This document shows positions 1,262 through 52,422 of a stretch of DNA of 64,000 bases, one piece after another. The stretch is from an uncultured bacterium (GTDB lineage: Bacteria > Myxococcota_A > UBA9042 > PHBI01): positions 13,513 through 77,512 of the forward strand of contig CALHXW010000039.1 of the NCBI GenBank assembly GCA_938040325.1, written 5' to 3'. How positions within the stretch are numbered: the first letter of the stretch is position 1; the number at the start of each line of letters is the position of its first letter. The translations under genes were made by a program, and so were the position numbers. The notes below the pieces were generated by a model. The model was not told the DNA's origin. It searched no databases and saw only the letters and a list, made by a program, of their open reading frames with translations.

Positions 1262-2383
1262 TTAGTCGCGGGAGAGGAAGGGTAGCTTGACCACGCGTGC
1301 GCTCTTGGTGCGCCCGCGGCAGTCGATGGTCAGTTCAGTGCCCGTGTCGCTCAGTGCGACAGGGACGTAGCCGAGCGCAATGGCGCGGCCCGTGGTGGGA
1401 GACTTCGTGCCTGATGTCACCGACCCGACGACCGCGCCAGCGTGCGCGATGGGGTAGCCAGGGCGGGGGATGCCGCGCTCGGTCAGCTCGAGTCCAACAA
1501 GCTTTCGGCTGACACCTTTGGCGGCCTGCGCCACCAGCGCGTCACGGCCTACGAAGTCGCCATCGTCGAGCCGCACGACCCACTCCAAGCCTGCTTCCAG
1601 CGGGGTCGTGGTGCGGTCGATGTCGTTGCCGTAGAGAGCGTACGCCATCTCAAGTCGCAGCGTGTCGCGCGCTCCGAGGCCGACTGGGCCAACGCCAAGG
1701 TCGGCTCCCTGCGTCATCAGCGCGTCCCACAGCGCCATCGCGACGCTGTTGGGGGCGTAGATCTCGCCACCGCGCTCGCCGGTGTAGCCGGTCGTGGCAA
1801 AGAGGACGGACGTGCCGGCAAACGTTCGCTCACGGATGCGAAACGGACGCAGCTTCGAGGTCTTGCCGATGACTCGGTCGAGCAGCTCGGTCGCATGCGG
1901 TCCCTGCACCGCGATCTGAGACCAGCTGTCGCTCTCGTCGGTCAGCTCGACATCCCCGCGAAGGTGCTCGCGCATGTGGGCGACGTCGGTGTGTCGGTTG
2001 GACGCGTTGACGCAGATGAGGACGTCGTCGTCGGCAAGGCGGTAGACGATCATGTCGTCGACGATCGTGCCGTCGGGCGCACACATCGCAGTGTACTGGG
2101 CGCGACCGTTGGCGATGCGGTTGAGGTCGTTGGTTGCAAAGCGGTTCGCAGCGGCGAGCGCGTCCTTGCCGCGCAGCCGGACCTCGCCCATGTGGGAGAC
2201 ATCAAAGAGTCCGACTGCCTCGCGCACCCGCGTGTGCTCCGCGACGATTCCGTCGTACTGGATAGGCATCTCGAAGCCTGCGAAGGGCACGAGACGCGCC
2301 TTCAACGCAACGTGGGCGTCGTAGAGCGCGGTGCGAGCGAGTTCGGACACGCTGCCTCCTCTAGGTTTCGTGAGCGGTCGCAC
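1262..2383 (-). CDS. gcvT: Aminomethyltransferase (glycine cleavage system T protein)
   Basis: 373-aa ORF with GcvT hallmarks ([32 protein letters not shown]). The listed start is GTG at 2383. A more typical start is the GTG encoding V12 at about 2350. Confidence 0.92.
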
Positions 2384-2603
2384 GCGGGACTATAGTGGTG
2401 CGTTTCAGGCTGGGCTACAGGATTCGCACGAGGCAAGCCTAGCCCTAGTTATAGATGCCGGAAGTTTGTTCCTAGGTCCCGACAGGCCGTCGTCGAGGTC
2501 GAGATCCGACGACGCCGACGTGTCGGGACCCTTCAAGAAGTCGGACCGAAGAGATCGGCGATGGACCGTCGAGGAGATAGGAACGAACTTCCGATCTCTG
2601 CAA

Positions 2604-4487
2604 CTAGCTGCCGAACTCGCGCTTGGTGGCCATGCGAAGCCTGCTGGCGAGAACGCCAGCCACCCGCCGTGACACCATGGGGTCGAGCATCGCTGCTTCG
2701 AAGTGCTCGTGCCCAAGGACCCAGCAGGAGGTCGTTCCTTTGGCACGAGCTGCAGCGGTCCGGGTGTTGCCGTCGATGAGTGCTACCTCACCGAAGCAGG
2801 ACGGTGCGTCGAGGGTGTTGAGCACGGTGTCGTTGATCGCGATCTCGATCCTGCCTGACGACAGGAGGTAGAGGGCGTTTGCCTCGTCGCCGTAGCTAAA
2901 GAGGACTTCGCCATCGGTGTAGTGCTCTTGCGACAGCGCAAGCGCCATGCTCACCAGCGCGTGGGCAGGTACATCTGCAAAGAGGCTGATCCGCTTGAGG
3001 TGCGCGATTCGCTCGAGCAGCTCGGCAACCGGACGCGGGAGCGGACGACGACCGTTGCTCGTCGCCACACGCTCGACCGCCTGCAGCCAGCGCTCATCGC
3101 CGAGGACGTCTTCGGGAGAGCTCTCCCCGGTGCCTGCGGCGGCGGCAGCAACGACGGCCTCCGGGGCAAGCTTCATCATGTCGTTCATGATCGCGACGAA
3201 CGTTGGCGCTTGGCTCTCACCTGCAGCGTTGAGGGCTCTAAAGGAGGTCCAATAGAGCTCAGCGGCGCGCGTACGGAGCCGCAGGCTGTCGAGCTTTCCG
3301 TCGAACGCACGCTCGATGGCCTGTGAGGCTGCGTCCACCGCGGCCAGTCGTCCTTCGGATGCCTCGTCGAGGAGCGGGTCGATCCGCTGGACATGGCGCG
3401 AGATCGTCTCCTCGCGGAGTCGCGCCTCGCGGCGTCCGTCGAGGTAGGCCTCGACCCCCTCGAGGAGGTCGCGGACGGAAGGCGGCCGGTCTTCTGGGCG
3501 TCGTGCCAGCGCGCGCATCGTCAGCTCGTCGAGCTCGCGAGGAATCCGTCGGTTGGGGGCGCGACGCGCCGGTGATGGGAAGTCTTCCCAGACGAAAGGG
3601 CCCCCTACGCCAGACGACGCACGCGGCATCGGCAGTTCCGTGGTGAGCAGCTCGTAGAGCAGAACACCCAGCGACCAGATGTCAGCACGCTCATCGAGGA
3701 TGTCCGGATCGGAGCCAGAGGCTTGCTCCGGCGACATGTAGCCTGGGCTGCCGCTCCAGAGCTCTCGCCGCGCCTGGGCTTTACCGCCAGCGCCGAGGAC
3801 TTTCGCGAGACCCCAGTCCGAGACCCACACCTCGCCGAGAGGACCGATGATGATGTTGGCGGGCTTGAGGTCGCAGTGGACCACGCCGCGCTCGTGGCAG
3901 AACACGATCGCACGCAAGATCTGGGCGAAGTACTCGAGGAGTCGGGGGAGGCGAGGCTCCTCAGCGCCCCGCTTTCGTCGGTCGAGGATGCGGTCGAGCG
4001 GCTCACCTTCGAGCCGCTTCATGGTGTAGTAGGGGCCAAAGACCTCGCTGCTGCCGGCGTCGTACACCGGCACGATGTTCGGGTGGTCAAGGGCGCCGGT
4101 AATGACGGCCTCCTCAACGAAAGCGCGCCGCATGATCGGCTCCGCAGCGTGGTGGTCGCGGAGCGTCTTGAGCGCCACGGTGCGGCGTAGCTGACGGTCG
4201 GCCGCTAGCTGGACGGTACCGATGCCGCCGTGGCCGATCACCGCCCCGAGGGCATAACGCTTGTCCCCCTCATCGGTGAGCTTCGGACCGTCTGGGGACA
4301 GACCCGGGTGGAGCGAGTCCCGGCTGTCGCTGATCACCGGCCGTCGCGTCTCATGTGCGCGCCGAATCGGTCGACTCCGGGAACGTTGCCCTAGGTTGCG
4401 CGTGGTGTTCGCGCGCAGGGTCGCGACGACGGAGTCAGAGTCTGAAACCCTGGGCCGTCGCAGGTTCTTTTCGTCATCGATTGCCAC
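2604..4487 (-). CDS. Ser/Thr protein kinase fused to a C-terminal cyclic-nucleotide-binding (CAP-type effector) domain
   Basis: Kinase motifs present: GHGGIGTV, an ALK-type lysine, HCDLKPANIII, DWGLAK, SPE. The C-terminal ~120 aa match a cNMP-binding domain (FGEVALIDGNTRTAAARA). GTG start at 4487. Confidence 0.85.
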   Translation of the reverse strand: MAIDDEKNLRRPRVSDSDSVVATLRANTTRNLGQRSRSRPIRRAHETRRPVISDSRDSLHPGLSPDGPKLTDEGDKRYALGAVIGHGGIGTVQLAADRQLRRTVALKTLRDHHAAEPIMRRAFVEEAVITGALDHPNIVPVYDAGSSEVFGPYYTMKRLEGEPLDRILDRRKRGAEEPRLPRLLEYFAQILRAIVFCHERGVVHCDLKPANIIIGPLGEVWVSDWGLAKVLGAGGKAQARRELWSGSPGYMSPEQASGSDPDILDERADIWSLGVLLYELLTTELPMPRASSGVGGPFVWEDFPSPARRAPNRRIPRELDELTMRALARRPEDRPPSVRDLLEGVEAYLDGRREARLREETISRHVQRIDPLLDEASEGRLAAVDAASQAIERAFDGKLDSLRLRTRAAELYWTSFRALNAAGESQAPTFVAIMNDMMKLAPEAVVAAAAAGTGESSPEDVLGDERWLQAVERVATSNGRRPLPRPVAELLERIAHLKRISLFADVPAHALVSMALALSQEHYTDGEVLFSYGDEANALYLLSSGRIEIAINDTVLNTLDAPSCFGEVALIDGNTRTAAARAKGTTSCWVLGHEHFEAAMLDPMVSRRVAGVLASRLRMATKREFGS

Positions 4488-4891
4488 CCGCTGAGTATAG
4501 ACACGTCATCAGAATCTGCGAGTCCCTTACGCAGACCGTCGTCCTGGCCGGTTGTGCTTTGTTCACGACGGCTGGTCCAAAGGCCGTCGGGCACTGGGCC
4601 GGCAGCCGCTTGTCTGACGTGCGAAGTGCCGGGGCGCTCGGCAGACTTCGGCAGCGGTCGGCCGCTCGCTGAGACGGAAGGGGGGCGTCCCAGCACCTAG
4701 CGCAAGACGTGAACGCTCGTAACCGACCTCGCGGCGTTTGGCTCCGTTTGAAGACTCTGGCGACAGTAACCAACCGTGCGGTGCTCTAGCAGCGTTCGGG
4801 GAATGCAATTCCCGATGACTTCGTGATGCGCACCACTGAGGCAACAACCTCAAGATCACCTTCCCAGAAACCGCATTGCCCGGCAACGCTG

Positions 4892-5749
4892 CTAGCCCCG
4901 CTTCGTCGCACGCTCAGCAGCCTCGACGGTGTTGGCCAAGAGCGACGCAACGGTCATCGGGCCGACACCACCCGGGACCGGCGTGATCATCGCCGCGTTT
5001 GCTGCACCGCTGTCGGCCACGTCTCCGACGATCTCGCCGTTGGGGAGTCGGTTGATTCCGACGTCGATGACAATGGCACCGGGTCGCACCCAGCTAGACG
5101 TCACCAGCCCAGGGATTCCCACCGCGGAGATGAGAATGTCAGCCTGGCGTGCGTGCGCTGCAGAGTCGAGCGTGTGGCGGTGGCAGGTCGTGACCGTCGC
5201 ATTCGCGGCCAAGAGCAACGCGCCCAGCGGTCGGCCCACGATGACGCTGCGTCCCAGAATGACCGCATGACGTCCCTCGATCGGGACGTCGTAGGCACGC
5301 AGGAGATGAAGAATCCCGCGTGGCGTGCACGGGCTCAGTCCGTCCTGGCGTCGGAGGAGGGCTGCCGCGTTGTGAGGATGAAGGCCATCGACATCTTTCG
5401 CCGGATCCAGCCCAGCGATCGTGTGCTGAACGTCGATGTGGTCTGGCAGGGGCAGCTGGACGAGGATACCGTGGACAGCGGGATCGAGATTGAGACCGAC
5501 GATGGCGGCATCCAGCTCCGCTTGGGTGATCGTTGCCGGGAGTCGCACCACCTGAGAGCGGATCGATGACTTGTGGGCCATCCGTTCCTTGATACGCACG
5601 TAGATGGCGCTCGCAGGATGGTCGCCGACCAAGACCACGGCCAGCCCAGGCACGATACCGGCGGCAGCGAGCTTACGCGCGCGGCGCCGAACATCCTTGC
5701 GGAGAGAGCGTGCCACCTGTTTTCCATCGATGATCGTCGGCATAGCCAT
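4892..5749 (-). CDS. folD: Bifunctional 5,10-methylene-THF dehydrogenase / methenyl-THF cyclohydrolase
   Basis: 285 aa. Classic FolD sequence (GLAVVLVGDHPAS..YVRIK, GILVQLPLP, PGGVGPMTVA). Confidence 0.95.
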   Translation of the reverse strand: MAMPTIIDGKQVARSLRKDVRRRARKLAAAGIVPGLAVVLVGDHPASAIYVRIKERMAHKSSIRSQVVRLPATITQAELDAAIVGLNLDPAVHGILVQLPLPDHIDVQHTIAGLDPAKDVDGLHPHNAAALLRRQDGLSPCTPRGILHLLRAYDVPIEGRHAVILGRSVIVGRPLGALLLAANATVTTCHRHTLDSAAHARQADILISAVGIPGLVTSSWVRPGAIVIDVGINRLPNGEIVGDVADSGAANAAMITPVPGGVGPMTVASLLANTVEAAERATKRG

Positions 5750-5808
5750 TCAGCTATGATCCCGGTGGCCGTCGGTCAACCACTGTGCGTCCCGGCTGTC
5801 CCAGCGGC

Positions 5809-6981
5809 TTAGGTGCGGCGATTGTGGCGACCGAATCGCTGATCCGCTTGGCGGGCGAGGGTTGGCAACAGGGCCGCGCCGATCCCGAGCCCGACGCACA
5901 GGCCGCCGAGGTGGGCGCCGTGGTCGACGCCCATGGTGCCGGCGGTTGCGGATACGAGCACGTTCGAGACGAGGATGACCCCACCCACAAGCGTGGCCGT
6001 CGTGTAGCGAAGCGGGATGCGGCCGTAGCGCCTCTGGAACCACAGGCCAACGAAGAGCGCCATGCCCGCGAGCCCGCTGATGGCACCGCTGGCCCCCACC
6101 GTGTCGACAGGCAGATCCATCACGAGACGAAACAGGATGCTGACGAGGCCGCCGCCTACCGCGCAGAGCAGATAGACGCCCAAAAACCGTGCGTGACCGA
6201 GGACTTGCTCGAGGATTTGCCCCACGAGGATCAGCGCAGCCATGTTTAACACGACGTGCTGCCACGCCGGTAAGTGCACGAACGGGTAGGTGAGCAGGGC
6301 CCATGGCCTCGCGAGGTTCGGTGGGAGCGAGAGCGTCTGGTAGATGGCACCGCTCTCGTCGACCCGCTTGAGCAGGACGAACGCTGCGAGCGTGAGGCTG
6401 ACCAAGACCCAGACGACGAACGGGTCTCGGGTGCGGAACATCGCCCGAAAGGCGCGCACCAGCGAACGTTCCGTCTGAACGTCGGCCTGCGCGTCTCGGA
6501 GAGCGACGACCTCGGCCAAAAGATCGAGCCGGTCAACGGCTGCATCCGCCCGCTCGGCGCCGGCCAAGTGGGTCAGCAGCCGACTCCGCGGACGCGTCAG
6601 CAGCGTGCGATGGTGCTTGTCGAGTCGCGCCTGGTCTGCGTCGCTCAACCCCAGGGTGGCGAGGCGCTCAGCGGCTGCCTGCCGAGCTGTGTCCGACAGG
6701 CGTGGGTTGTCCTTCGCTGCTGAGAGTGCGACCGGCGACGCGTCGTCCTTGATATAGGCGAGGACATCGGCGGCTCGACAGGCATCGACACGCTCGCCCC
6801 AGATCCCTCGGAGGTAGTAGGGAAGGCGGTCCCACAGCGCAGATGCGACCGCGGCCCCGGAGAGCCGTGTGAGCTGCGTTGTCTGGCCAGGTGCGGTCGG
6901 ACTGGCCAGTGAGCGGTGTGGTGTGTTGGAGGGAGTCCCCATGCGGCATCGATACCACTTCCCGGCGGTTTCGAAAATCAC
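5809..6981 (-). CDS. Rhomboid-family intramembrane serine protease with a ~190-aa cytoplasmic N-terminal extension
   Basis: C-terminal half has multiple TM helices, the GASGAISG catalytic serine motif and AHLGG histidine. 60 bp upstream of folD on the same strand. The exact start is uncertain (possibly MGTPSN near 6942). Confidence 0.8.
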   Translation of the reverse strand: MIFETAGKWYRCRMGTPSNTPHRSLASPTAPGQTTQLTRLSGAAVASALWDRLPYYLRGIWGERVDACRAADVLAYIKDDASPVALSAAKDNPRLSDTARQAAAERLATLGLSDADQARLDKHHRTLLTRPRSRLLTHLAGAERADAAVDRLDLLAEVVALRDAQADVQTERSLVRAFRAMFRTRDPFVVWVLVSLTLAAFVLLKRVDESGAIYQTLSLPPNLARPWALLTYPFVHLPAWQHVVLNMAALILVGQILEQVLGHARFLGVYLLCAVGGGLVSILFRLVMDLPVDTVGASGAISGLAGMALFVGLWFQRRYGRIPLRYTTATLVGGVILVSNVLVSATAGTMGVDHGAHLGGLCVGLGIGAALLPTLARQADQRFGRHNRRT

Positions 6982-7044
6982 GGCACGACGCGAGGCGGCG
7001 ATGTCACTTTACCTGCCTGGTGCCGCAGTGGTAGCACGCCAGGC

Positions 7045-7710
7045 ATGGACGGATCGTTTTGGCGGCAGCGGTGGGCAGACGGGCGGATCGGCTTTCACGC
7101 CGCGGCGGCCAACCATCATCTGCTCGCTCATGCGGACCGGTTTCTGCCGGAGACGGGCGGCCGTGTCCTTGTGCCGCTCTGCGGCAAGACCGTCGACCTC
7201 ACGTGGCTCTCGGAACGCGGGCATGACGTCGTTGGTGTCGAGCTCGTCGAGAGCGCTGCTGTCGCCTACTTCGCCGAAGCAGGCCACGTCCCGACGGTTG
7301 CCGACATCGGTCCCTACACCGCCTACAGCCATGGCCGAGTCACGATATTGGTCGGCGACTTTTTGGCTCTAACGCCTGCCATCCTTGGGCCGGTCACCCA
7401 CATCTATGACCGGGCCGCCATGATTGCGCTTCCCCCGGCGATGCGGGTTCGCTTCGTTGAGGTGATGCGTCAGCACATGACGCCTGGTGTGACGCTGCTC
7501 TTGCTCACCATGACGTACGACCAGGCCGCTCTCCCGGGCCCTCCGCACTCTGTCGACACCGCCGAGGTGATGCTCGGCTACGCGGATGGCTGCACGGTGG
7601 AGCTGCTCGCCCAAGGCGACGCCGAGTCCATGCCCCCACGTTTTGCGGCCCACACGGTCACGACCAGCGATTGGCTGGTCACCGCCGGGCCTGCCCGCGA
7701 CTTGCGCTAG
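7045..7710 (+). CDS. tpm: Thiopurine S-methyltransferase family protein (Tpm)
   Basis: FWRQRWADGRIGFH...LVPLCGKTVDLTWLSERGHDVVGVE matches the TPMT family N-terminus. The ORF track starts at 6916; I prefer the internal ATG at 7045 (MDGSFWRQRW). Confidence 0.8.
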   Translation: MDGSFWRQRWADGRIGFHAAAANHHLLAHADRFLPETGGRVLVPLCGKTVDLTWLSERGHDVVGVELVESAAVAYFAEAGHVPTVADIGPYTAYSHGRVTILVGDFLALTPAILGPVTHIYDRAAMIALPPAMRVRFVEVMRQHMTPGVTLLLLTMTYDQAALPGPPHSVDTAEVMLGYADGCTVELLAQGDAESMPPRFAAHTVTTSDWLVTAGPARDLR

Positions 7711-7761
7711 CTTTCCGCTCTTAACCGAACAACCGCCGCGATAGCGGCACTGGAGACTTCC

Positions 7762-8253
7762 ATGGCGACGATCACCCTCAAAGGCAACCCCATCGAGACC
7801 AACGGCGATCTGCCGGCCGTCGGCTCAGCAGCCCCTGACTTCAAGCTCGTGAAGACCGACCTCTCGGAGGTCTCGCTCAGCGGACTGTCGGGCAAGACCG
7901 TGCTCAACATCTTCCCAAGCATTGACACGCCGGTCTGCGCGATGAGCGTCCGAGCGTTCAATGAGCGCGCCGCCGCACTCGAGGGCGTCACGGTGCTCAA
8001 CGTGTCCGCCGATCTGCCCTTCGCTCACAAGCGATTCTGCGGCGCCGAAGGCCTCGACAAGGTCGAGTCAGCATCCACGTTCCGTGGCTCGTTCCTCAGC
8101 GACTACGGCGTCAAGATCACGACCGGGCCGCTCGCCGGCGTTGGCGCGCGTGCCGTTGTCATCGTCGCCGACGGCAAGGTCGTCTACAGCGAGCTCGTGC
8201 CTGAGATCGCACAAGAGCCCAACTACGATGCGGCGCTCGCCGTCATCTCGTAG
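7762..8253 (+). CDS. tpx: Thiol peroxidase (atypical 2-Cys peroxiredoxin, Tpx)
   Basis: 163 aa. [10 protein letters not shown]...AAPDFKLV...SIDTPVCA...RFC and C-terminal ALAVIS are a full-length Tpx match. Confidence 0.93.
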
Positions 8254-8424
8254 CGAACGCGGCTGAGGTCAGGCTGGAGCCGCTGCTTGGCGGCTTCGGT
8301 GCCTGCACCTTTGCCGACAACGCTACCAGCGCTCGCGCCGCTTCGGTGCTGTAGTCATCGGCGACGCGCACTCTTCGATGTCGGTGCTTGCCGGGCTCGC
8401 GTTGGGGCATACACTTCGACCACG

Positions 8425-9402
8425 ATGCGTCTACCCCGCCGACTCGCGAGCTCTTTGCTCGCCACGTTGCTCGTGTGCTCGACGGCTCTCGCGGCGGTTC
8501 CGGAACCGCCGCCGGCCGCGGGCGCGACCAAGCACATCAAGTTCTTCGCCGACGCCGCGGGCCGTGCCGCTGTGGAGCGCCTGCTTCCCGAAGCGGAAGA
8601 ACGCCTGATGCGCATCTGCAGCCAGCTTGGTGCGTGCGAGCGCATGCGCACGCCGATCCACATCTGGATTAGCGACGATGCCCAAGCGTTCGCTGAGGCA
8701 TTTGGGCACGAGACACCCATGGCGGAGTGGGCGGCTGGGGTCGCCTTCCTCGAGCAGAACCGGATTGCGCTCCGGGCTCACGGTACCGCTCTCTTCTCTC
8801 TCAAAGAGACCTTTGACCATGAGCTGAGTCACCTCATCGTCCACAGCTTTGGCGAGCTCTCGCGGGTTCCACGCTGGCTTAGCGAGGGGCTTGCGATCTG
8901 GCAGTCCGGCGAAGACGTGATCGGCCGACTCGACGCCGCGCACCGCGCCGCGCTGACTGGCAACCTGCTGTCGCTTGACGAGCTGACCGACCGCTTCCCC
9001 AACAAGGGGAGCCGGGTCGCGCTGTCGTATGCGATGAGCGCGCTCTTCGTCCGTCACCTCATCGACAGCGTCGGGCTGGACGTGATGCGGGCGAGCCTCA
9101 ACGACATGAGCGAAGGGCAGCCATGGCAGTCGGCGTTTGAGACCCGAGGAGACCTGTCGGTGACCGAGTCGTTCGAGGACTGGGTCGGGTCGCTCGAGGA
9201 CTCTACGTCTGTGCTGATGCTCTTTCGCGATGGAACGCTCTTTTGGATCCTCATGACGGTGCTCTTCACGATTGTGGCCATGATCGTGGTCCGGGAACGC
9301 AAGTCGCAGCTGGAAGACCTCGGCGATCGAGACGATGCCGAAGAGGCCTTCGATGAGCTACAGGCGCAGCGCGATGCGGGTCTGCCGCCGACCCTGCACT
9401 GA
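8425..9402 (+). CDS. Secreted, C-terminally membrane-anchored HExxH zincin-like protein (putative metallopeptidase, MA-clan-like)
   Basis: Signal peptide MRLPRRLASSLLATLLVCSTALAA. HELSH motif with a downstream Glu (WLSEGLA). Predicted C-terminal TM helix (LFWILMTVLFTIVAMIVV) followed by an acidic tail. The track ORF begins at TTG 8287; the ATG at 8425 gives the signal peptide. Confidence 0.6.
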   Translation: MRLPRRLASSLLATLLVCSTALAAVPEPPPAAGATKHIKFFADAAGRAAVERLLPEAEERLMRICSQLGACERMRTPIHIWISDDAQAFAEAFGHETPMAEWAAGVAFLEQNRIALRAHGTALFSLKETFDHELSHLIVHSFGELSRVPRWLSEGLAIWQSGEDVIGRLDAAHRAALTGNLLSLDELTDRFPNKGSRVALSYAMSALFVRHLIDSVGLDVMRASLNDMSEGQPWQSAFETRGDLSVTESFEDWVGSLEDSTSVLMLFRDGTLFWILMTVLFTIVAMIVVRERKSQLEDLGDRDDAEEAFDELQAQRDAGLPPTLH

Positions 9403-9616
9403 CGCGTTCGCTGGCATCGTGATGGCCGCACCGCAGGCCGGAAGCTCACTCACGGATAGCGCCCCGCGCTGAGGTTTACGCTCGCTCGCTCCCACGCGCG
9501 GGTTACCGGGTGTCGCGGAGTCTGCCTCTCGGATCAACGCCTCTACGTTTGCGTCGACGCCTCTTCGGTTGCGGTAGTGAGGTGCCGTGCCGAAGTCAGC
9601 CGGCTGCGCCGACGGT

Positions 9617-9663
9617 GACTGTCGACAGTCGCCGACAGTCGTCGACAGTCGGTTTCGACAGTC
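9617..9663. repeat. Array of five GACAGTC heptamers spaced 10, 10 and 13 bp apart. The first two form a perfect 14-bp palindrome GACTGTCGACAGTC. Putative upstream activator (enhancer-binding protein) sites
   Basis: Read directly: gGACTGTCGACAGTCgccGACAGTCgtcGACAGTCggtttcGACAGTCt. Helical-turn phasing. Lies about 260-300 bp upstream of the sigma-54-like promoter at 9920. Confidence 0.55.
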
Positions 9664-9919
9664 TGGAGCGCGCAACCGGCTACTGAAGCGACTCGTACTC
9701 GCGGTGCGGCATTCGTGTGATGGGCCGGAGAGCTGGTGCATCGATCCATGCCGTCGCGCGTCGGCAAGAAAGGCTGGATGTGTTTTTGTTTCAGTTGGTT
9801 GCGGGCCTTGCCGGTCGGCGGTCTGCCCTGCCTCCTGGAGCGCGCGACGCTCTCTTGAGGGGCACTCAATGAGCGCCCGAGCGGGCCGAGTCGGGAAGAT
9901 TCCCATTGCCTGTCGGGGT

Positions 9920-9935
9920 TGGTACACCGGTTGCA
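9920..9935 (+). promoter_or_regulatory. Sigma-54 (RpoN)-type promoter TGGTACaccggTTGCA (-24 GG / -12 GC correctly spaced)
   Basis: Matches TGGCAC-N5-TTGCW at 9 of 10 core positions. Located 35 bp upstream of the ATG at 9970, which is preceded by a GGGAGG Shine-Dalgarno. Confidence 0.5.
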
Positions 9936-9969
9936 CTGACAGTGTCGGACCACTTGTCGGGAGGCGAGC

Positions 9970-12858
9970 ATGAGAGGACCCAAGCTGATGTTGAGCAACA
10001 CGATTGAGCGCGGCGTCATGCGTTGTGTGAGAGGGCTTCTGTTGGTGGGCTTGGTGGCGTGGGTCTCCTCGACCGCGTCGGCTGGCGACCTGCGGCACGC
10101 AGCACTCATCGACGAGGTGGTCGATGGCGCTGCAAGCACGTCGATCGGGACCGAAGTCGCCATCATCAACGCGCTCAAGAAACGAGGCATCACGTTCGTC
10201 GACGCAAGCCAAAGTCAGAAGGTTCGCTCGGTCACCGATGCTGGCACGCTGATCGCTGGCACCGTGCCCGACGTGGTCACGGCCCTCGATGCCGATGTCC
10301 TGATCGCTGCGGTCTGCCGCATGGAACAGATCAAAAACGAGCTGATCGCTGGAACGGCCGTGCGGTACAGCGCTGCGGTCGACGCAAAGCTCATTCGCGT
10401 CGACACCGGCCAGGTCGTCGGTGCCTACCAAGTGCTCGGCAAAGGTCTCGGCTTTTCGAAGGCGCAGGCACAGCAGAAAGCGGCACAGGACGCCGGCAAG
10501 AAGCTGGCCGAGGAGATTGCCGCTGCGTCGAGCGGCGCCGCGGTGGACGCTTCAAGCCTCGAGCTCACGGTCCAAGGGATTCCCAACGTCAGTGCTGGTG
10601 AGGCCGTTGTCCGCGGGCTTGAGCGGGTCAAGGGGATCAAAGGTGTGCGCGCACTCCAGATGGGGCGCGGTGCCGCCAAGCTTCGGCTCACGGTGTCGGC
10701 AGGCGCGCGGGAAACCGCCGTGGCGATCGACGGTGCGAGCGGCCTCGGCTTGAGCGTCTTCGGATACTCGCGCTCGGCCATCAAGGCCGAGTACCGCGCC
10801 GAGACTGCGACGCGCTTCCCCATCGTCATCACGCGATTCTCGGGCGGCCGAAAAGCCGGCTGGCGCGGTGACGCCATGGGCAAGATTGTGGGTGCGTCAC
10901 TGAGCAACACGGGCTTCGTAGATATCGTCAACAGCGACAAGCCCGCCCGGCTTGGCCGCAAGAAATCTCGGCTCAAGAAGGTGCTCAAAGGGCTGAAGAC
11001 CGACGCAACCAACGCGCTTGTGCTTGAGGGGGCTCTCCACCGCGGCGGCGGCAAGGAAAGCGTCGTGATCTCGCTGTCGTCTGCGGCCACCGGCGCCGTC
11101 ATCGCGACCGCTCAGCGGCCGTGTACAGGCGAGCTGGCGAGCTGCGTTGCGGCTGCCGGCGATGAGCTGAGCGATGGCCTGATGGGCAACTTGCTCAAGA
11201 AGCGACACCTCTTCAAGGACGCGCTTCCTGCCCGGGCGCAAGTCGCTTCCAAAGCCAGCGGCAGCGACGCGAAGCCGCTGCGCGTGCTCTCGCTTGACGT
11301 CGACAACGTTTACCCAGCCCGCTTGAACGCCTACCGCGACCAGCCGCTTGGAATGATCAACGTGGTCAACACCTCGTCGGAGCCCCTCCAGGACGTGGTC
11401 GTGGAGGCGAAGCTCGCTGGCTTTGCTGCACCGGTCGAGAGCAAATCAACGCAGATCGCGGCCAAGGGCAAAGCGACGCTTCCCATCAAGGTGGTGCTCG
11501 ACCCTGCAACACTCCGCGACCATGACGAGAACCAGACCGCCATCCTGACGCTGGTCATTCGGTACCGGGTCGGCGAGTTCCAAGTGGAGCAGCGTCGCAC
11601 CCGCGCCGTCATGGTCTTTGACCGCAACACCGTCAACTGGAGCACCCCAGGCTCCGTTGCATCGTTTGTGACGTCGCGCTCGTCGAGCGTTGCGCGACTC
11701 TCGCGCGATATCCAAGGCGCACTGCCCCCGTCTGCGGCCAGCGACCCTGTGGCGCTCGGCGCGGCCGTCTTCGCCGGGATGCAGGAGCTGGGGCTGCGCT
11801 ACCAGCGCGATCCGGTCAACCCCTACGGTGCAGAGGTGCTCGACACGGTCCAGTTCCCCGAGCAAACCCTGACCAACAACACGGGAGACTGCGACGACCT
11901 GGCCGTCTTGTACGCCTCGCTCGCAGAGTCGCTTGGGGTTCCCGCCGCGCTGGTCCTCACACCGGAGCACGTCTTCGTCGCGACCTACACCGGCGTTCCC
12001 AGCCAGTCCGGTGACCGGCTGCTCAACCACCGGGGCATGGCCTGGCTGCCGCTGGAGACCACCTTGTTGAACAAGTCTGTTGACGCCGCATGGGACCGTG
12101 CCGCTGAGCAGGTTGCAGCCCATGGCGACGCGCTGCGGGTCATCGAGGTTCGCAGCGCTTGGTCGGAACATCCACCCGCGGCGCTGGCGGCCGCTGGTGC
12201 CAATGGCTTCCGCTACGATGCCAAGGCGCTGCGCGGGTCGGTCTCCGCTGCGGTGAAGTCGATCGGCGCAAAGCGACGGGGGCGTCTATCCGATGACGTT
12301 GCGCGCATTGATGCGCTCCTCAAAGACCAAGGCGACAAGCCGCAGCTGCGACTCCAGAAAGGCTACCTCTTAGCGCGTGCCGGCGACTTCGCTGCGGCCC
12401 AAGCGGAGTTTGATCGCCTGACCAACGCCCGCGCCTGGTCGGCGTTCGCCGTCAACAACAACGGCAACGTTCACCTCCTCGACGGTCGGCCAGCAGTTGC
12501 GCGTAAGCAATACTTGGCTGCGCTCAAGCTCCGACAAGGCGACGCTCGGATCCATGCCAATGCCGCGATCGCGTCGCACTTGCTTGGTGATGCCTCAGCA
12601 TTCGATGACCACCTCTTTGAGTGCATCGCCAACGGCGGCGACGCGCTCGTCGCCCAGATCAGCCGCAGCGGCCTCGGTGGCGCGGGCGCACGCGGTTCCG
12701 CGGCTGGCAGGTCCTCGCTTGGACAAGCGATTCGTGACGCGTACAAGCGTCGGAATGTATCGTTACCCAACGGGTTAGCAGTGGGAGGGCGGCGCGCGAC
12801 GTCCGCCGAGTCCACCGTGACGCTGGCTGCCGAGCAGCTCCAATGGTTGTGGGAATGA
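9970..12858 (+). CDS. Large secreted protein: N-terminal periplasmic domain, central transglutaminase-like cysteine-protease core, C-terminal TPR repeats
   Basis: Signal peptide (LLLVGLVAWVSSTASA). Transglutaminase-like core reads NNTGDCDDLAVLYASLAESLGVPAALVLTPEHVFVA (Cys...His). TPR-like helical repeats at the C-terminus (LLARAGDFAAAQAEFDRL...). High GC3. SD plus ATG start. Confidence 0.75.
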   Translation: MRGPKLMLSNTIERGVMRCVRGLLLVGLVAWVSSTASAGDLRHAALIDEVVDGAASTSIGTEVAIINALKKRGITFVDASQSQKVRSVTDAGTLIAGTVPDVVTALDADVLIAAVCRMEQIKNELIAGTAVRYSAAVDAKLIRVDTGQVVGAYQVLGKGLGFSKAQAQQKAAQDAGKKLAEEIAAASSGAAVDASSLELTVQGIPNVSAGEAVVRGLERVKGIKGVRALQMGRGAAKLRLTVSAGARETAVAIDGASGLGLSVFGYSRSAIKAEYRAETATRFPIVITRFSGGRKAGWRGDAMGKIVGASLSNTGFVDIVNSDKPARLGRKKSRLKKVLKGLKTDATNALVLEGALHRGGGKESVVISLSSAATGAVIATAQRPCTGELASCVAAAGDELSDGLMGNLLKKRHLFKDALPARAQVASKASGSDAKPLRVLSLDVDNVYPARLNAYRDQPLGMINVVNTSSEPLQDVVVEAKLAGFAAPVESKSTQIAAKGKATLPIKVVLDPATLRDHDENQTAILTLVIRYRVGEFQVEQRRTRAVMVFDRNTVNWSTPGSVASFVTSRSSSVARLSRDIQGALPPSAASDPVALGAAVFAGMQELGLRYQRDPVNPYGAEVLDTVQFPEQTLTNNTGDCDDLAVLYASLAESLGVPAALVLTPEHVFVATYTGVPSQSGDRLLNHRGMAWLPLETTLLNKSVDAAWDRAAEQVAAHGDALRVIEVRSAWSEHPPAALAAAGANGFRYDAKALRGSVSAAVKSIGAKRRGRLSDDVARIDALLKDQGDKPQLRLQKGYLLARAGDFAAAQAEFDRLTNARAWSAFAVNNNGNVHLLDGRPAVARKQYLAALKLRQGDARIHANAAIASHLLGDASAFDDHLFECIANGGDALVAQISRSGLGGAGARGSAAGRSSLGQAIRDAYKRRNVSLPNGLAVGGRRATSAESTVTLAAEQLQWLWE

Positions 12859-13490
12859 AAAGATCAATGCAAAGCCAGACCTCGGCGCGATGGCCCTCGG
12901 GCCTCCGCGCAGTCCTTCTCATGACGGCGCTCGCGCTTGTGACGCCGACTGGCTTTGCTGCGGAACCAGATGAGGCTCCCGGTGGCCTCAAGGTCGGCGA
13001 CTTTGCGCCTCAGTTTCTGATGAAGACGCTCAACCCCAAAGAGAGTGGGGTGGAGATGTTTTCCACCAAGCGCGTCGTGGGCAGTCAGGCCGACCAGCCA
13101 AAGGCGGGTCTGGTCGTGACGTTCGCTGCGTCGTGGTGCAAGCCATGCAAGCGCGAGCTCCCAGAGATCAAAAAGCTCGCCGATCGCTACGCCGACAAAG
13201 GAATTGCCACGGTTGTCGTCGTTGTCGACCGTGAGCCGGCAGCCACCGAGACCATGCGATCCCTGCTTGTCGACGAGCTCAAGTTCAGCCATCCGGTTCT
13301 CACCGATCGGTTCGGGGTTGTCGGACGTCGATACTTCGCCGAAGAGCTGCCGATGACGGTCGTCGTCGATGCCGATGCAAAGATTGTCTGGCTTCGCTCC
13401 GGATACGATGAAAAGACGGCTCGTGACCTTGAGCGCGAGCTGAAAGAGCTCGCCAAGAAGGCCGCAAACAGGCCATCCAAGGGCAAGTAG
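12855..13490 (+). CDS. TlpA-like thiol:disulfide oxidoreductase (thioredoxin fold, WCKPC), secreted
   Basis: Signal peptide, then FAASWCKPCKRELPEI. The ATG at 12855 overlaps the upstream stop (ATGA), implying translational coupling with the 9970 gene. Confidence 0.85.
   Translation: MKRSMQSQTSARWPSGLRAVLLMTALALVTPTGFAAEPDEAPGGLKVGDFAPQFLMKTLNPKESGVEMFSTKRVVGSQADQPKAGLVVTFAASWCKPCKRELPEIKKLADRYADKGIATVVVVVDREPAATETMRSLLVDELKFSHPVLTDRFGVVGRRYFAEELPMTVVVDADAKIVWLRSGYDEKTARDLERELKELAKKAANRPSKGK

Positions 13491-47520: not shown

Positions 47521-52422
<4,902 letters not shown>

Follow-up and report, generated by a model that had tools for sequence, protein, structure and literature searches.

In an uncultured myxobacterium, the gene for a secreted transglutaminase-like/TPR protein (TG) and the overlapping redoxin gene are probably driven by a sigma-54 promoter, which would be switched by an enhancer-binding protein (EBP) acting on an array of the palindrome CGACNGTCG. 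Both elements sit in a 567-bp non-coding gap (9403–9969) of the window, the whole 64,000-nucleotide stretch of DNA that was analysed, and the locus is regarded as a real regulatory switch of an ordinary type. The observations behind this reading are the sequence elements themselves (Table 1), which are statistically rare and are conserved jointly, and an EBP gene adjacent to the array at the orthologous locus L006. The TG protein has a signal-peptide-like N-terminus and an invariant GDCDD motif, and a redoxin gene is also found downstream of the TG gene in L004, L006, L082, L207 and L208.

Table 1. Features of the TG locus, in window coordinates except where a locus is named.
Feature	Position	Strand	Details
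CGACNGTCG palindrome array, putative EBP enhancer (UAS)	9608–9664	.	Homologous arrays: L006 5706–5736, L004 927–952
Array units	9616–9664		tGACTGTCG 9616–9624; CGACAGTCG 9623–9631, 9633–9641, 9643–9651; CGACAGTCt 9656–9664
Degenerate array unit	9610–9618		CGACGGTga
Weak hairpin and T-rich tract	9761–9801	+	tgtgtttttgtttcag; about halfway between array and promoter
TGTCGG motifs flanking promoter	9909–9960	+	9911–16, 9943–48, 9955–60
Sigma-54 (-24/-12) promoter	9920–9935	+	TGGTACaccggTTGCA (= TGGTACACCGGTTGCA); GG 9921–22, GC 9933–34
Shine-Dalgarno sequence and start codon	9960–9972	+	GGAGG 9960–64; ATG 9970
Regulated gene, 962-aa secreted protein with transglutaminase-like core and TPR repeats	9970–12858	+	Transglut_core, 24 bits
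ResA/TlpA-like thiol-disulfide oxidoreductase (redoxin), second operon gene	12843–13490	+	Overlaps TG gene

The first-pass annotation had proposed a match to the RpoN -24/-12 consensus with one mismatch, placed about 35 bp before an ATG preceded by a Shine-Dalgarno sequence, and both parts of this proposal were confirmed. A good fit to YTGGCACGrNNNTTGCW with the GG and GC 10 bases apart was taken as the criterion for a sigma-54 promoter. The element fits 10 of the 11 core positions, has a single mismatch relative to TGGCAC and carries 10 bases between its GG and GC. No other perfect TGGYAC-N5-TTGCW occurs in the window, where shuffles of the 64 kb give an expectation of 0.08, and the element lies in the non-coding gap, in the orientation of the TG gene and 34 nt from its ATG. 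Within high-GC comparison DNA (438 kb on both strands, 875 kb strand length) just two matches reached 10/11 or better, one 5' of the TG gene in the window and the other 5' of that in L004. On these grounds the -24/-12 element is judged to be a genuine sigma-54 promoter, with a predicted transcription start near 9946. A fortuitous match, with the TG gene instead read through from the peptidase gene or transcribed from an unrecognised sigma-70-type promoter, is very unlikely given this rarity and the conservation around the element, where 21 of 22 positions, spacer included, are identical between the window and L006. This is despite the one mismatch to TGGCAC and the nature of the search for alternatives: no sigma-70-like consensus was found in 9403–9969, by consensus scans that are crude for such elements, and the sigma-A promoters of myxobacteria are poorly modelled. 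No RpoN box was found within the 64-kb window. Myxococcota generally carry rpoN, and use of sigma-54 by the window organism is indirectly supported by the GAFTGA-bearing EBP encoded at 47521–52422.

Five GACAGTC heptamers some 260–300 bp upstream of the promoter, together with a 14-bp palindrome, had likewise been annotated and were recovered here. The copies are located at 9617 on the minus strand and at 9624, 9634, 9644 and 9657 on the plus strand, account for five of the seven in the 64 kb, and have spacings of 7, 10, 10 and 13 bp within 9617–9663; the palindrome GACTGTCGACAGTC spans 9617–9630. Although the copies are present, GACAGTC specifically does not hold as the repeat unit, the recognisable unit on sequence comparison being a 9-bp palindrome, CGACNGTCG, whose central base is free. 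The five units lie 257–303 bp upstream of the window's promoter (middle about 280 bp). Pairs of CGACNGTCG phased at 10–11 bp, allowing at most one mismatch per 9-mer, occur in the window only within the array, compared with 0.13 pairs expected. An EBP dimer usually binds a 17–20-bp dyad, with which a 9-bp palindrome every 10–11 bp is in no obvious register. Of the 45 short tandem repeats that Tandem Repeats Finder lists across the window, the array is just one (10 bp × 2.9, score 51), so the weight given to it comes from comparison with other loci and not from the window alone.

Array and promoter recur together at two orthologous TG loci. At L006, three CGACSGTCG units with a period of 11 bp are followed by TGGTACACCGGTTGCT (5830–5845), which is identical to the window promoter at 15 of 16 positions, with the array about 95–125 bp upstream. 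At L004, two units and one degenerate unit are followed by GGGCACAGGGGTTGCA (1042–1057), which fits 10 of the 11 core positions, with the array about 90–115 bp upstream. Some 280 bp separate array and promoter in the window, a longer interval than the roughly 105 bp of L004 and L006, and all three arrays lie within the span of about 80–300+ bp 5' of a sigma-54 promoter that is expected of EBP enhancers. The TG proteins of the three loci have a mutual identity of only about 40% and are no closer to one another than to those of loci without the elements. Because the array and the sigma-54 promoter are both missing at about 17 other orthologous loci, the sigma-54 element at TG loci is read as lineage-restricted. 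The three upstream regions have 40 9-mers in common, compared with 11 in shuffles, and these cluster in three places: the array, the promoter and a CYTGTCGGG motif close to the promoter. By a rough estimate, the recurrence of both elements at 2 of 19 loci by chance has a probability of about 5e-9. Joint recurrence beside proteins of such low identity supports the earlier suggestion of a sigma-54 promoter with an upstream enhancer.

These comparisons also bear on an alternative in which the sigma-54 promoter is genuine, the array arose as a neutral 10-bp slippage repeat that has no part in regulation, and the activator binds elsewhere. The number of short repeats in the window is in keeping with such a repeat, as is the lack of an array at the majority of orthologous loci and EBP loci. 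When metagenomes were scanned for three CGACNGTCG units, at least 120 matches were additionally returned from unrelated contigs. Most were coding repeats with a 12-bp period or unrelated repeats low in GC; none was near TG or EBP homologues, and sigma-54 promoters were not enriched among them. Since arrays of this kind found elsewhere in metagenomes are tandem repeats with no relation to the locus here, the CGACNGTCG motif alone is not diagnostic; with regard to a regulon the scan is uninformative. Against a neutral origin, however, L004 and L006 carry the palindrome again, 5' of the equivalent promoter, despite the divergence of the proteins, and 933 kb of background contains only 2 phased pairs. 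Furthermore, the central base, spacer and period of the units differ among the window, L006 and L004 and only the palindromic core is kept, a pattern that resembles site selection. A neutral repeat is considered quite improbable, and the array is probably the EBP enhancer of the sigma-54 promoter.

Across 9403–9969 the third-position GC signal was absent, and a small gene within the gap was rejected on this basis, the 128-aa ORF at 9587–9973 being Cys/Arg-rich junk. A small RNA was also rejected, with no Rfam match (gathering threshold or E ≤ 1) and a fold z of -0.31. The hairpin and T-rich tract may represent an intrinsic bend or an IHF-like site; it showed no conservation in L004 or L006, and an IHF site in the interval from array to promoter was discarded, the one IHF-like match, at 9789, having two mismatches. 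TGTCGG occurs three times in the 370-bp region 9600–9969, with every copy inside a 50-bp span surrounding the promoter (P about 0.004). CCTGTCGGG adjoins the -24 element in the window and, inverted, in L004, and in L006 CTTGTCGGG lies 22 bp 5' of the -24 element. The further motif annotated just 3' of the -12 element, GACAGTGTC, is present at 9940–9948 but is not conserved as such, though TGTCGG recurs three times at the promoter.

The clustering of TGTCGG at the promoter would suit an arrangement in which the array binds a non-EBP regulator (a repressor, a read-through roadblock or a direct-repeat response regulator) and the promoter is activated from other sites, such as TGTCGG itself. Short repeats with a 10–11 bp period are typical of winged-helix response regulators, and the gene 5' of the array is co-directional both in the window, where it encodes a peptidase, and in L004. 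However, among the orthologous loci the array is found only where the sigma-54 promoter is, such promoters strictly require an EBP, and the L006 array is directly in front of an EBP gene. Binding of a non-EBP regulator is thus thought unlikely, and an EBP is preferred as the protein acting on the array.

The gene divergent from the array at L006, on the opposite strand and starting 42 bp from it, encodes a sigma-54 EBP (Sigma54_activat and HTH_8). No EBP gene adjoins the array in the window or L004, and the cognate EBP is absent from the window. A full-length homologue of the L006 EBP, P0073, is encoded on another contig (13.6 kb) from run ERR9287624, which is shared with the window organism. 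The helix-turn-helix (HTH) of P0073, WKIAPTAAALGIARASLYDLI, is almost identical to WKIGPTAAALGIARPSLYDLI of the L006 EBP. Its GC3 of 0.69, below the 0.71–0.84 of the window genes, counts against an origin in the same genome. The window organism probably encodes a member of this family elsewhere, and P0073, which may belong to that genome, is a better candidate activator than the EBP at 47521–52422. The latter, a 1633-aa kinase-TPR-EBP fusion with a GAFTGA loop and an HTH_8 domain, is the only EBP of the window and had been pointed to in the first-pass annotation; no support was obtained for it as the activator of the array. The HTH it carries, NKSAVARDLGLSRAGLNMKLKRL, shows no relation to the one found in the L006 family, and the fusion is not an orthologue of the L006 EBP, which is matched over the AAA+ domain only (44% identity). 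It is also 37 kb away and near no TG orthologue, and as the cognate activator it is extremely unlikely.

Proteins of the candidate EBP family, to which the L006 protein and P0073 belong, carry an FHA-like beta-sandwich as their N-domain and two helix-turn-helix-like bundles at the C-terminus, together with an AAA+ domain whose loop reads GAFSGA. The N-domain had no match in Pfam, nor was a GAF domain found, and a PDB profile search returned only 3gqs_A (E = 0.03). Foldseek matches to the whole EBP model were dominated by the AAA+ domain. No array was found beside the other family members at L082, L083, L085 and L210; at L082, the nearest locus to L006 and likewise one with a divergent EBP, the -12 TTGC is missing as well as the array.

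We infer EBP binding to the array, looping and activation, the start site and an inducing signal, such that the TG/TPR gene and the overlapping redoxin gene would be transcribed from the promoter at 9920–9935, starting near 9946. The promoter would stay silent until an EBP assembles on the CGACNGTCG array 260–300 bp upstream, from where it would loop to the closed complex and open it with ATP. The likely activator would come from the EBP family encoded divergently beside the L006 array, with P0073 as the candidate in the window organism. A broader and tentative proposal, about which we are doubtful, is that this family, widespread in Myxococcota and Acidobacteriota and having an FHA-like sensor domain and two tandem C-terminal HTH bundles in each monomer, reads CGACNGTCG arrays one helical turn apart, unlike the 17–20-bp dyad per dimer, and couples Ser/Thr-kinase signalling to an operon of TG/TPR and thiol-oxidoreductase genes.

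To our knowledge, sigma-54 regulons are large in Myxococcota and the DNA site or target is known for few of the EBPs. The EBP family described here is uncharacterised, and neither the activator protein nor the CGACNGTCG motif has been described previously. The locus brings together three conserved parts, namely the CGACNGTCG enhancer motif, the promoter and a candidate EBP family whose C-terminus carries an unusual double HTH, and this set could serve regulon prediction in uncultured lineages. As the regulatory logic is textbook, the value of the locus lies in annotation and hypothesis-building, with no new concept.

In enterics, NtrC acts at glnAp2 from several dimer sites 100–150 bp 5' of a -24/-12 promoter, through oligomerisation and looping, and the locus here is similar in having multiple sites upstream of such a promoter. 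However, NtrC binds 17-bp dyads (TGCACCA-N3-TGGTGCA) and its activation is triggered by receiver-domain phosphorylation, whereas the sites here are the 9-bp CGACNGTCG. In Myxococcus xanthus, the PexR enhancer of katB/ahpC consists of at least three tandem dyad-symmetric repeats 5' of a sigma-54 promoter that are bound by the EBP, three being sufficient; the targets are redox-related and the EBP gene is adjacent in some genomes (PMC12754779). The present locus shares the tandem palindromes 5' of a sigma-54 promoter, a redox-related gene and, at L006, an EBP gene adjacent to the array. The PexR site, CACCG-n6-CGGTG, is however a 16-bp interrupted sequence, compared with an uninterrupted 9-bp CGACNGTCG every 10–11 bp, and PexR has a GAF sensor in place of the beta-sandwich (FHA-like) N-domain and second C-terminal helical bundle of the candidate EBP. 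Membership of the PexR regulon was rejected on the basis of the motif and the lack of a GAF match in the EBP N-domain. Nla28 of M. xanthus recognises a palindromic 8-bp half-site, CTSCGSAG, present in 2–5 tandem copies within about 500 bp 5' of sigma-54 promoters (PMC9765219). These are also short self-palindromic units arranged in tandem upstream of a sigma-54 promoter, but they differ in sequence and in their looser spacing (mean about 25 bp), their promoters are often intragenic and the EBP is of the response-regulator type (PMC9765219). CT(C/G)CG(C/G)AG is absent from 9600–9670, and membership of the Nla28 regulon was also rejected. With PexR and Nla28 as precedents, tandem short palindromes can be myxobacterial enhancers.

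Upstream of the gene for the 962-aa secreted transglutaminase-like/TPR protein (the TG gene), the window, of 66% GC, contains a 567-bp gap in which third-position GC bias was not seen. A 128-aa ORF within the gap was rejected, its translation being Cys/Arg-rich junk. An Rfam search of the gap gave zero matches at either threshold, and its RNA folding energy was ordinary (z = -0.31). The sigma-54 match reported ahead of an SD-preceded ATG in the first-pass annotation was confirmed, and is the sole perfect TGGYAC-N5-TTGCW within the window, where 0.08 would be expected. No sigma-70-like consensus was found in 9000–10400. The sigma-54 promoter very likely works as such. The TG coding region contains a second sigma-54-like sequence, which probably arose by chance. 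Three TGTCGG motifs surround the promoter, one related sequence, CCTGTCGGG, adjoining the -24 element both in the window and, in inverted orientation, at the TG-orthologue locus L004, and another, CTTGTCGGG, being common to the window and locus L006. Such motifs may represent half-sites close to the promoter that are related to the unit of the array.

The five upstream GACAGTC heptamers and the 14-bp palindrome previously described are present, and account for five of the seven GACAGTC copies in the 64 kb. With flanks included, the repeated unit is a 9-bp palindrome, CGACNGTCG. Pairs of this unit phased at 10–11 bp, with one mismatch allowed in each, occur within the window in this array only (0.13 expected). 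The array is not compelling on the window alone; TRF scores 45 short tandem repeats there, of which this is one. Halfway from the array to the promoter there is a weak hairpin with a T-rich tract, and the best candidate in a search of this interval for an IHF site was an IHF-like match with two mismatches.

Features of the window and of the comparison loci
Locus	Feature	Position	Remarks
Window	Rhomboid gene	5809–6981	
Window	Peptidase_MA_2 gene	ends at 9402	bounds gap 9403–9969 upstream
Window	GACAGTC copies	9617(-), 9624, 9634, 9644, 9657(+)	
Window	Palindrome GACTGTCGACAGTC	9617–9630	
Window	T-rich tract	9761–9801	
Window	TGTCGG motifs	9911, 9943, 9955	region 9909–9960
Window	Promoter TGGTACACCGGTTGCA	9920–9935	GGAGG 9960–9964, ATG 9970
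Window	TG gene, 962-aa ORF	9970–12858 (+)	weak Transglut_core match, TPR repeats
Window	Sigma-54-like TGGCACGCTGATCGCT	10242–10257	one mismatch
Window	ResA/TlpA-like redoxin gene	12843–13490	overlaps end of TG gene
Window	Kinase-EBP fusion gene	47521–52422	1633 aa
L006	EBP gene	4036–5664	542 aa
L006	Array CGACCGTCG, CGACGGTCG, CGACGGTCG	5706–5736	11-bp period
L006	CTTGTCGGG	5798–5807	
L006	Promoter TGGTACACCGGTTGCT	5830	15/16 identical to window, spacer included; ATG 5917
L004	Array CGACTGTCG, CGACCGTCG	927–945	one-mismatch unit added at 944–952
L004	CCTGTCGGG, inverted	1030–1039	
L004	Promoter GGGCACAGGGGTTGCA	1042	ATG 1105
L082	Gap to TG orthologue	5897–6000	104 bp
L206	P0073 gene	72–1772	
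P0073 model	Part 1, beta-sandwich N-domain		
P0073 model	Part 2, AAA+ core		
P0073 model	Part 3, three-helix bundle	480–514	
P0073 model	Part 4, second three-helix bundle	526–560	weakly HTH_8-like, E = 0.06
L209	FHA-domain protein gene	2327–3004	225 aa
L146	Dispersed array/palindrome copies	6240, 9301	
L133	Dispersed array/palindrome copies	12098	
L121	Dispersed array/palindrome copies	807, 1012, 1239	

Relatives of the TG protein are few, none exceeds 41% identity, and every one belongs to uncultured Myxococcota, which assigns the window to a Myxococcota MAG. Residues 462–730, around the transglutaminase-like core, weakly resemble the N-terminal part of anti-phage ProA (NF058533; score 63 bits, cutoff 1500), which is a domain resemblance only. 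The window's contig is also present as an independent contig, L001, in run ERR9287624. The array is unchanged there, and the gap differs by four SNPs, all clustered at 9795–9812.

Upstream regions were compared across about 20 orthologous loci. Two of these, L006 and L004, have the same architecture of array and promoter, and the remainder have neither element. The proteins of the window, L004 and L006 are about 40% identical pairwise, no nearer to one another than to orthologues without the elements, and at such divergence neutral DNA is expected to be randomised. A scan of both strands of 438 kb of high-GC comparison sequence gave only two sigma-54 matches that reached 10/11 or better, each upstream of a TG gene (window and L004), and phased GACNGTC pairs occurred elsewhere only twice in 933 kb. 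The joint chance of two further loci with both elements is crudely estimated at ~5e-9. Shared 9-mers number 40 for the three upstream regions, compared with 11 after shuffling, and fall mainly in the array, promoter and promoter-adjacent CYTGTCGGG motif. The joint recurrence at L006 and L004 supports the earlier reading of a sigma-54 promoter with an upstream enhancer.

Within the array only the palindromic core is conserved. Spacers vary, the central base of the unit is A/T in the window versus C/G in L006, and units recur every 10 bp in one locus and every 11 bp in the other. Because conservation stops at the core, the array bears the signature of a putative protein-binding site rather than of an inherited repeat. 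Some data run contrary. The distance from array to promoter is ~280 bp in the window versus ~105 bp in L004 and L006. At L082, the closest relative of L006, TTGGTACATCGG is kept, the -12 TTGC is missing and the array is absent; this promoter looks degenerate or rewired. Other EBP loci examined also lack arrays.

When metagenomes were scanned for three CGACNGTCG units, at least 120 matches came back. Most were coding repeats with a 12-bp period or unrelated repeats of low GC. No TG or EBP homologue was near any of them and there was no enrichment of sigma-54 sites, so the array motif alone is not diagnostic. Fourfold ACGACAGTCG arrays are dispersed on unrelated metagenome contigs of 66–70% GC, and a contig of 40% GC has a palindromic element of 39 bp built of the same unit; these, on L146, L133 and L121, are repeat families.

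At L006, a divergent gene whose start is 42 bp from the array encodes a sigma-54 EBP with Sigma54_activat, AAA_lid_14 and HTH_8 domains and a GAFSGA loop. A rhomboid gene follows, and this gene pair is conserved in L006, L082 (where the EBP gene is also divergent), L083 and L210, with TG and redoxin genes adjoining it in L006 and L082. In the window the rhomboid gene is kept and the pair is broken, the place of the EBP gene (5809–9402 region) holding genes for TPMT, a 163-aa redoxin and Peptidase_MA_2; at L082, L083 and L210 the 163-aa redoxin gene, which the window likewise retains, is found on the far side of the rhomboid gene. The first-pass annotation had pointed to the EBP module at 47521–52422, a fusion of Ser/Thr kinase, AAA_16/TPR region and sigma-54 EBP with a GAFTGA loop and HTH_8. 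The window encodes no second EBP, and tblastn with the L006 EBP found no orthologue there, matching solely the AAA+ domain of the fusion (44% identity). With an HTH unrelated to that of the L006 family, the fusion is not supported as the activator of the array.

The L006 EBP family is broad, with full-length homologues 48–61% identical in Myxococcota and Acidobacteriota. Run ERR9287624, the source of L001, also yielded a member of this family, P0073, whose first HTH almost matches the one in the L006 EBP (WKIAPTAAALGIARASLYDLI versus WKIGPTAAALGIARPSLYDLI). Its GC3 of 0.69 is slightly under that of the window genes, and an origin in the same genome is plausible. An AlphaFold model of P0073 (pLDDT 84) has four parts. 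The best match of the N-domain in a PDB profile search was 3gqs_A (E = 0.03), which we take to be an FHA domain; an FHA-like nature of this domain in the family is a lead. At L209, a gene for an FHA-domain protein precedes the TG gene with overlapping stop and start codons, which again links the TG operon to phospho-threonine signalling. The family combines a beta-sandwich N-domain and GAFSGA loop with two consecutive C-terminal three-helix bundles, and the double C-terminal HTH is conserved in homologues from both phyla. The array probably serves the promoter as its enhancer, with a member of the L006/P0073 EBP family as the protein that would bind it. Two adjacent units together form a 19–20-bp dyad; a dimeric EBP might read the 9-bp palindromes at 10–11 bp in this way, with the double HTH as an alternative possibility.

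For the annotation of sigma-54 regulons of uncultured myxobacteria this locus is of use; conceptually it is ordinary, the proposed logic being that of the classical sigma-54 enhancer bound by NtrC at glnAp2. The closest precedents within Myxococcota are PexR, whose binding sites ahead of katB and ahpC are three CACCG-n6-CGGTG repeats in tandem (PMC12754779), and Nla28, whose 8-bp half-site CTSCGSAG is itself palindromic and occurs in 2–5 tandem copies (PMC9765219). The array motif described here matches neither site, and the sensor domain of the candidate EBP is different.
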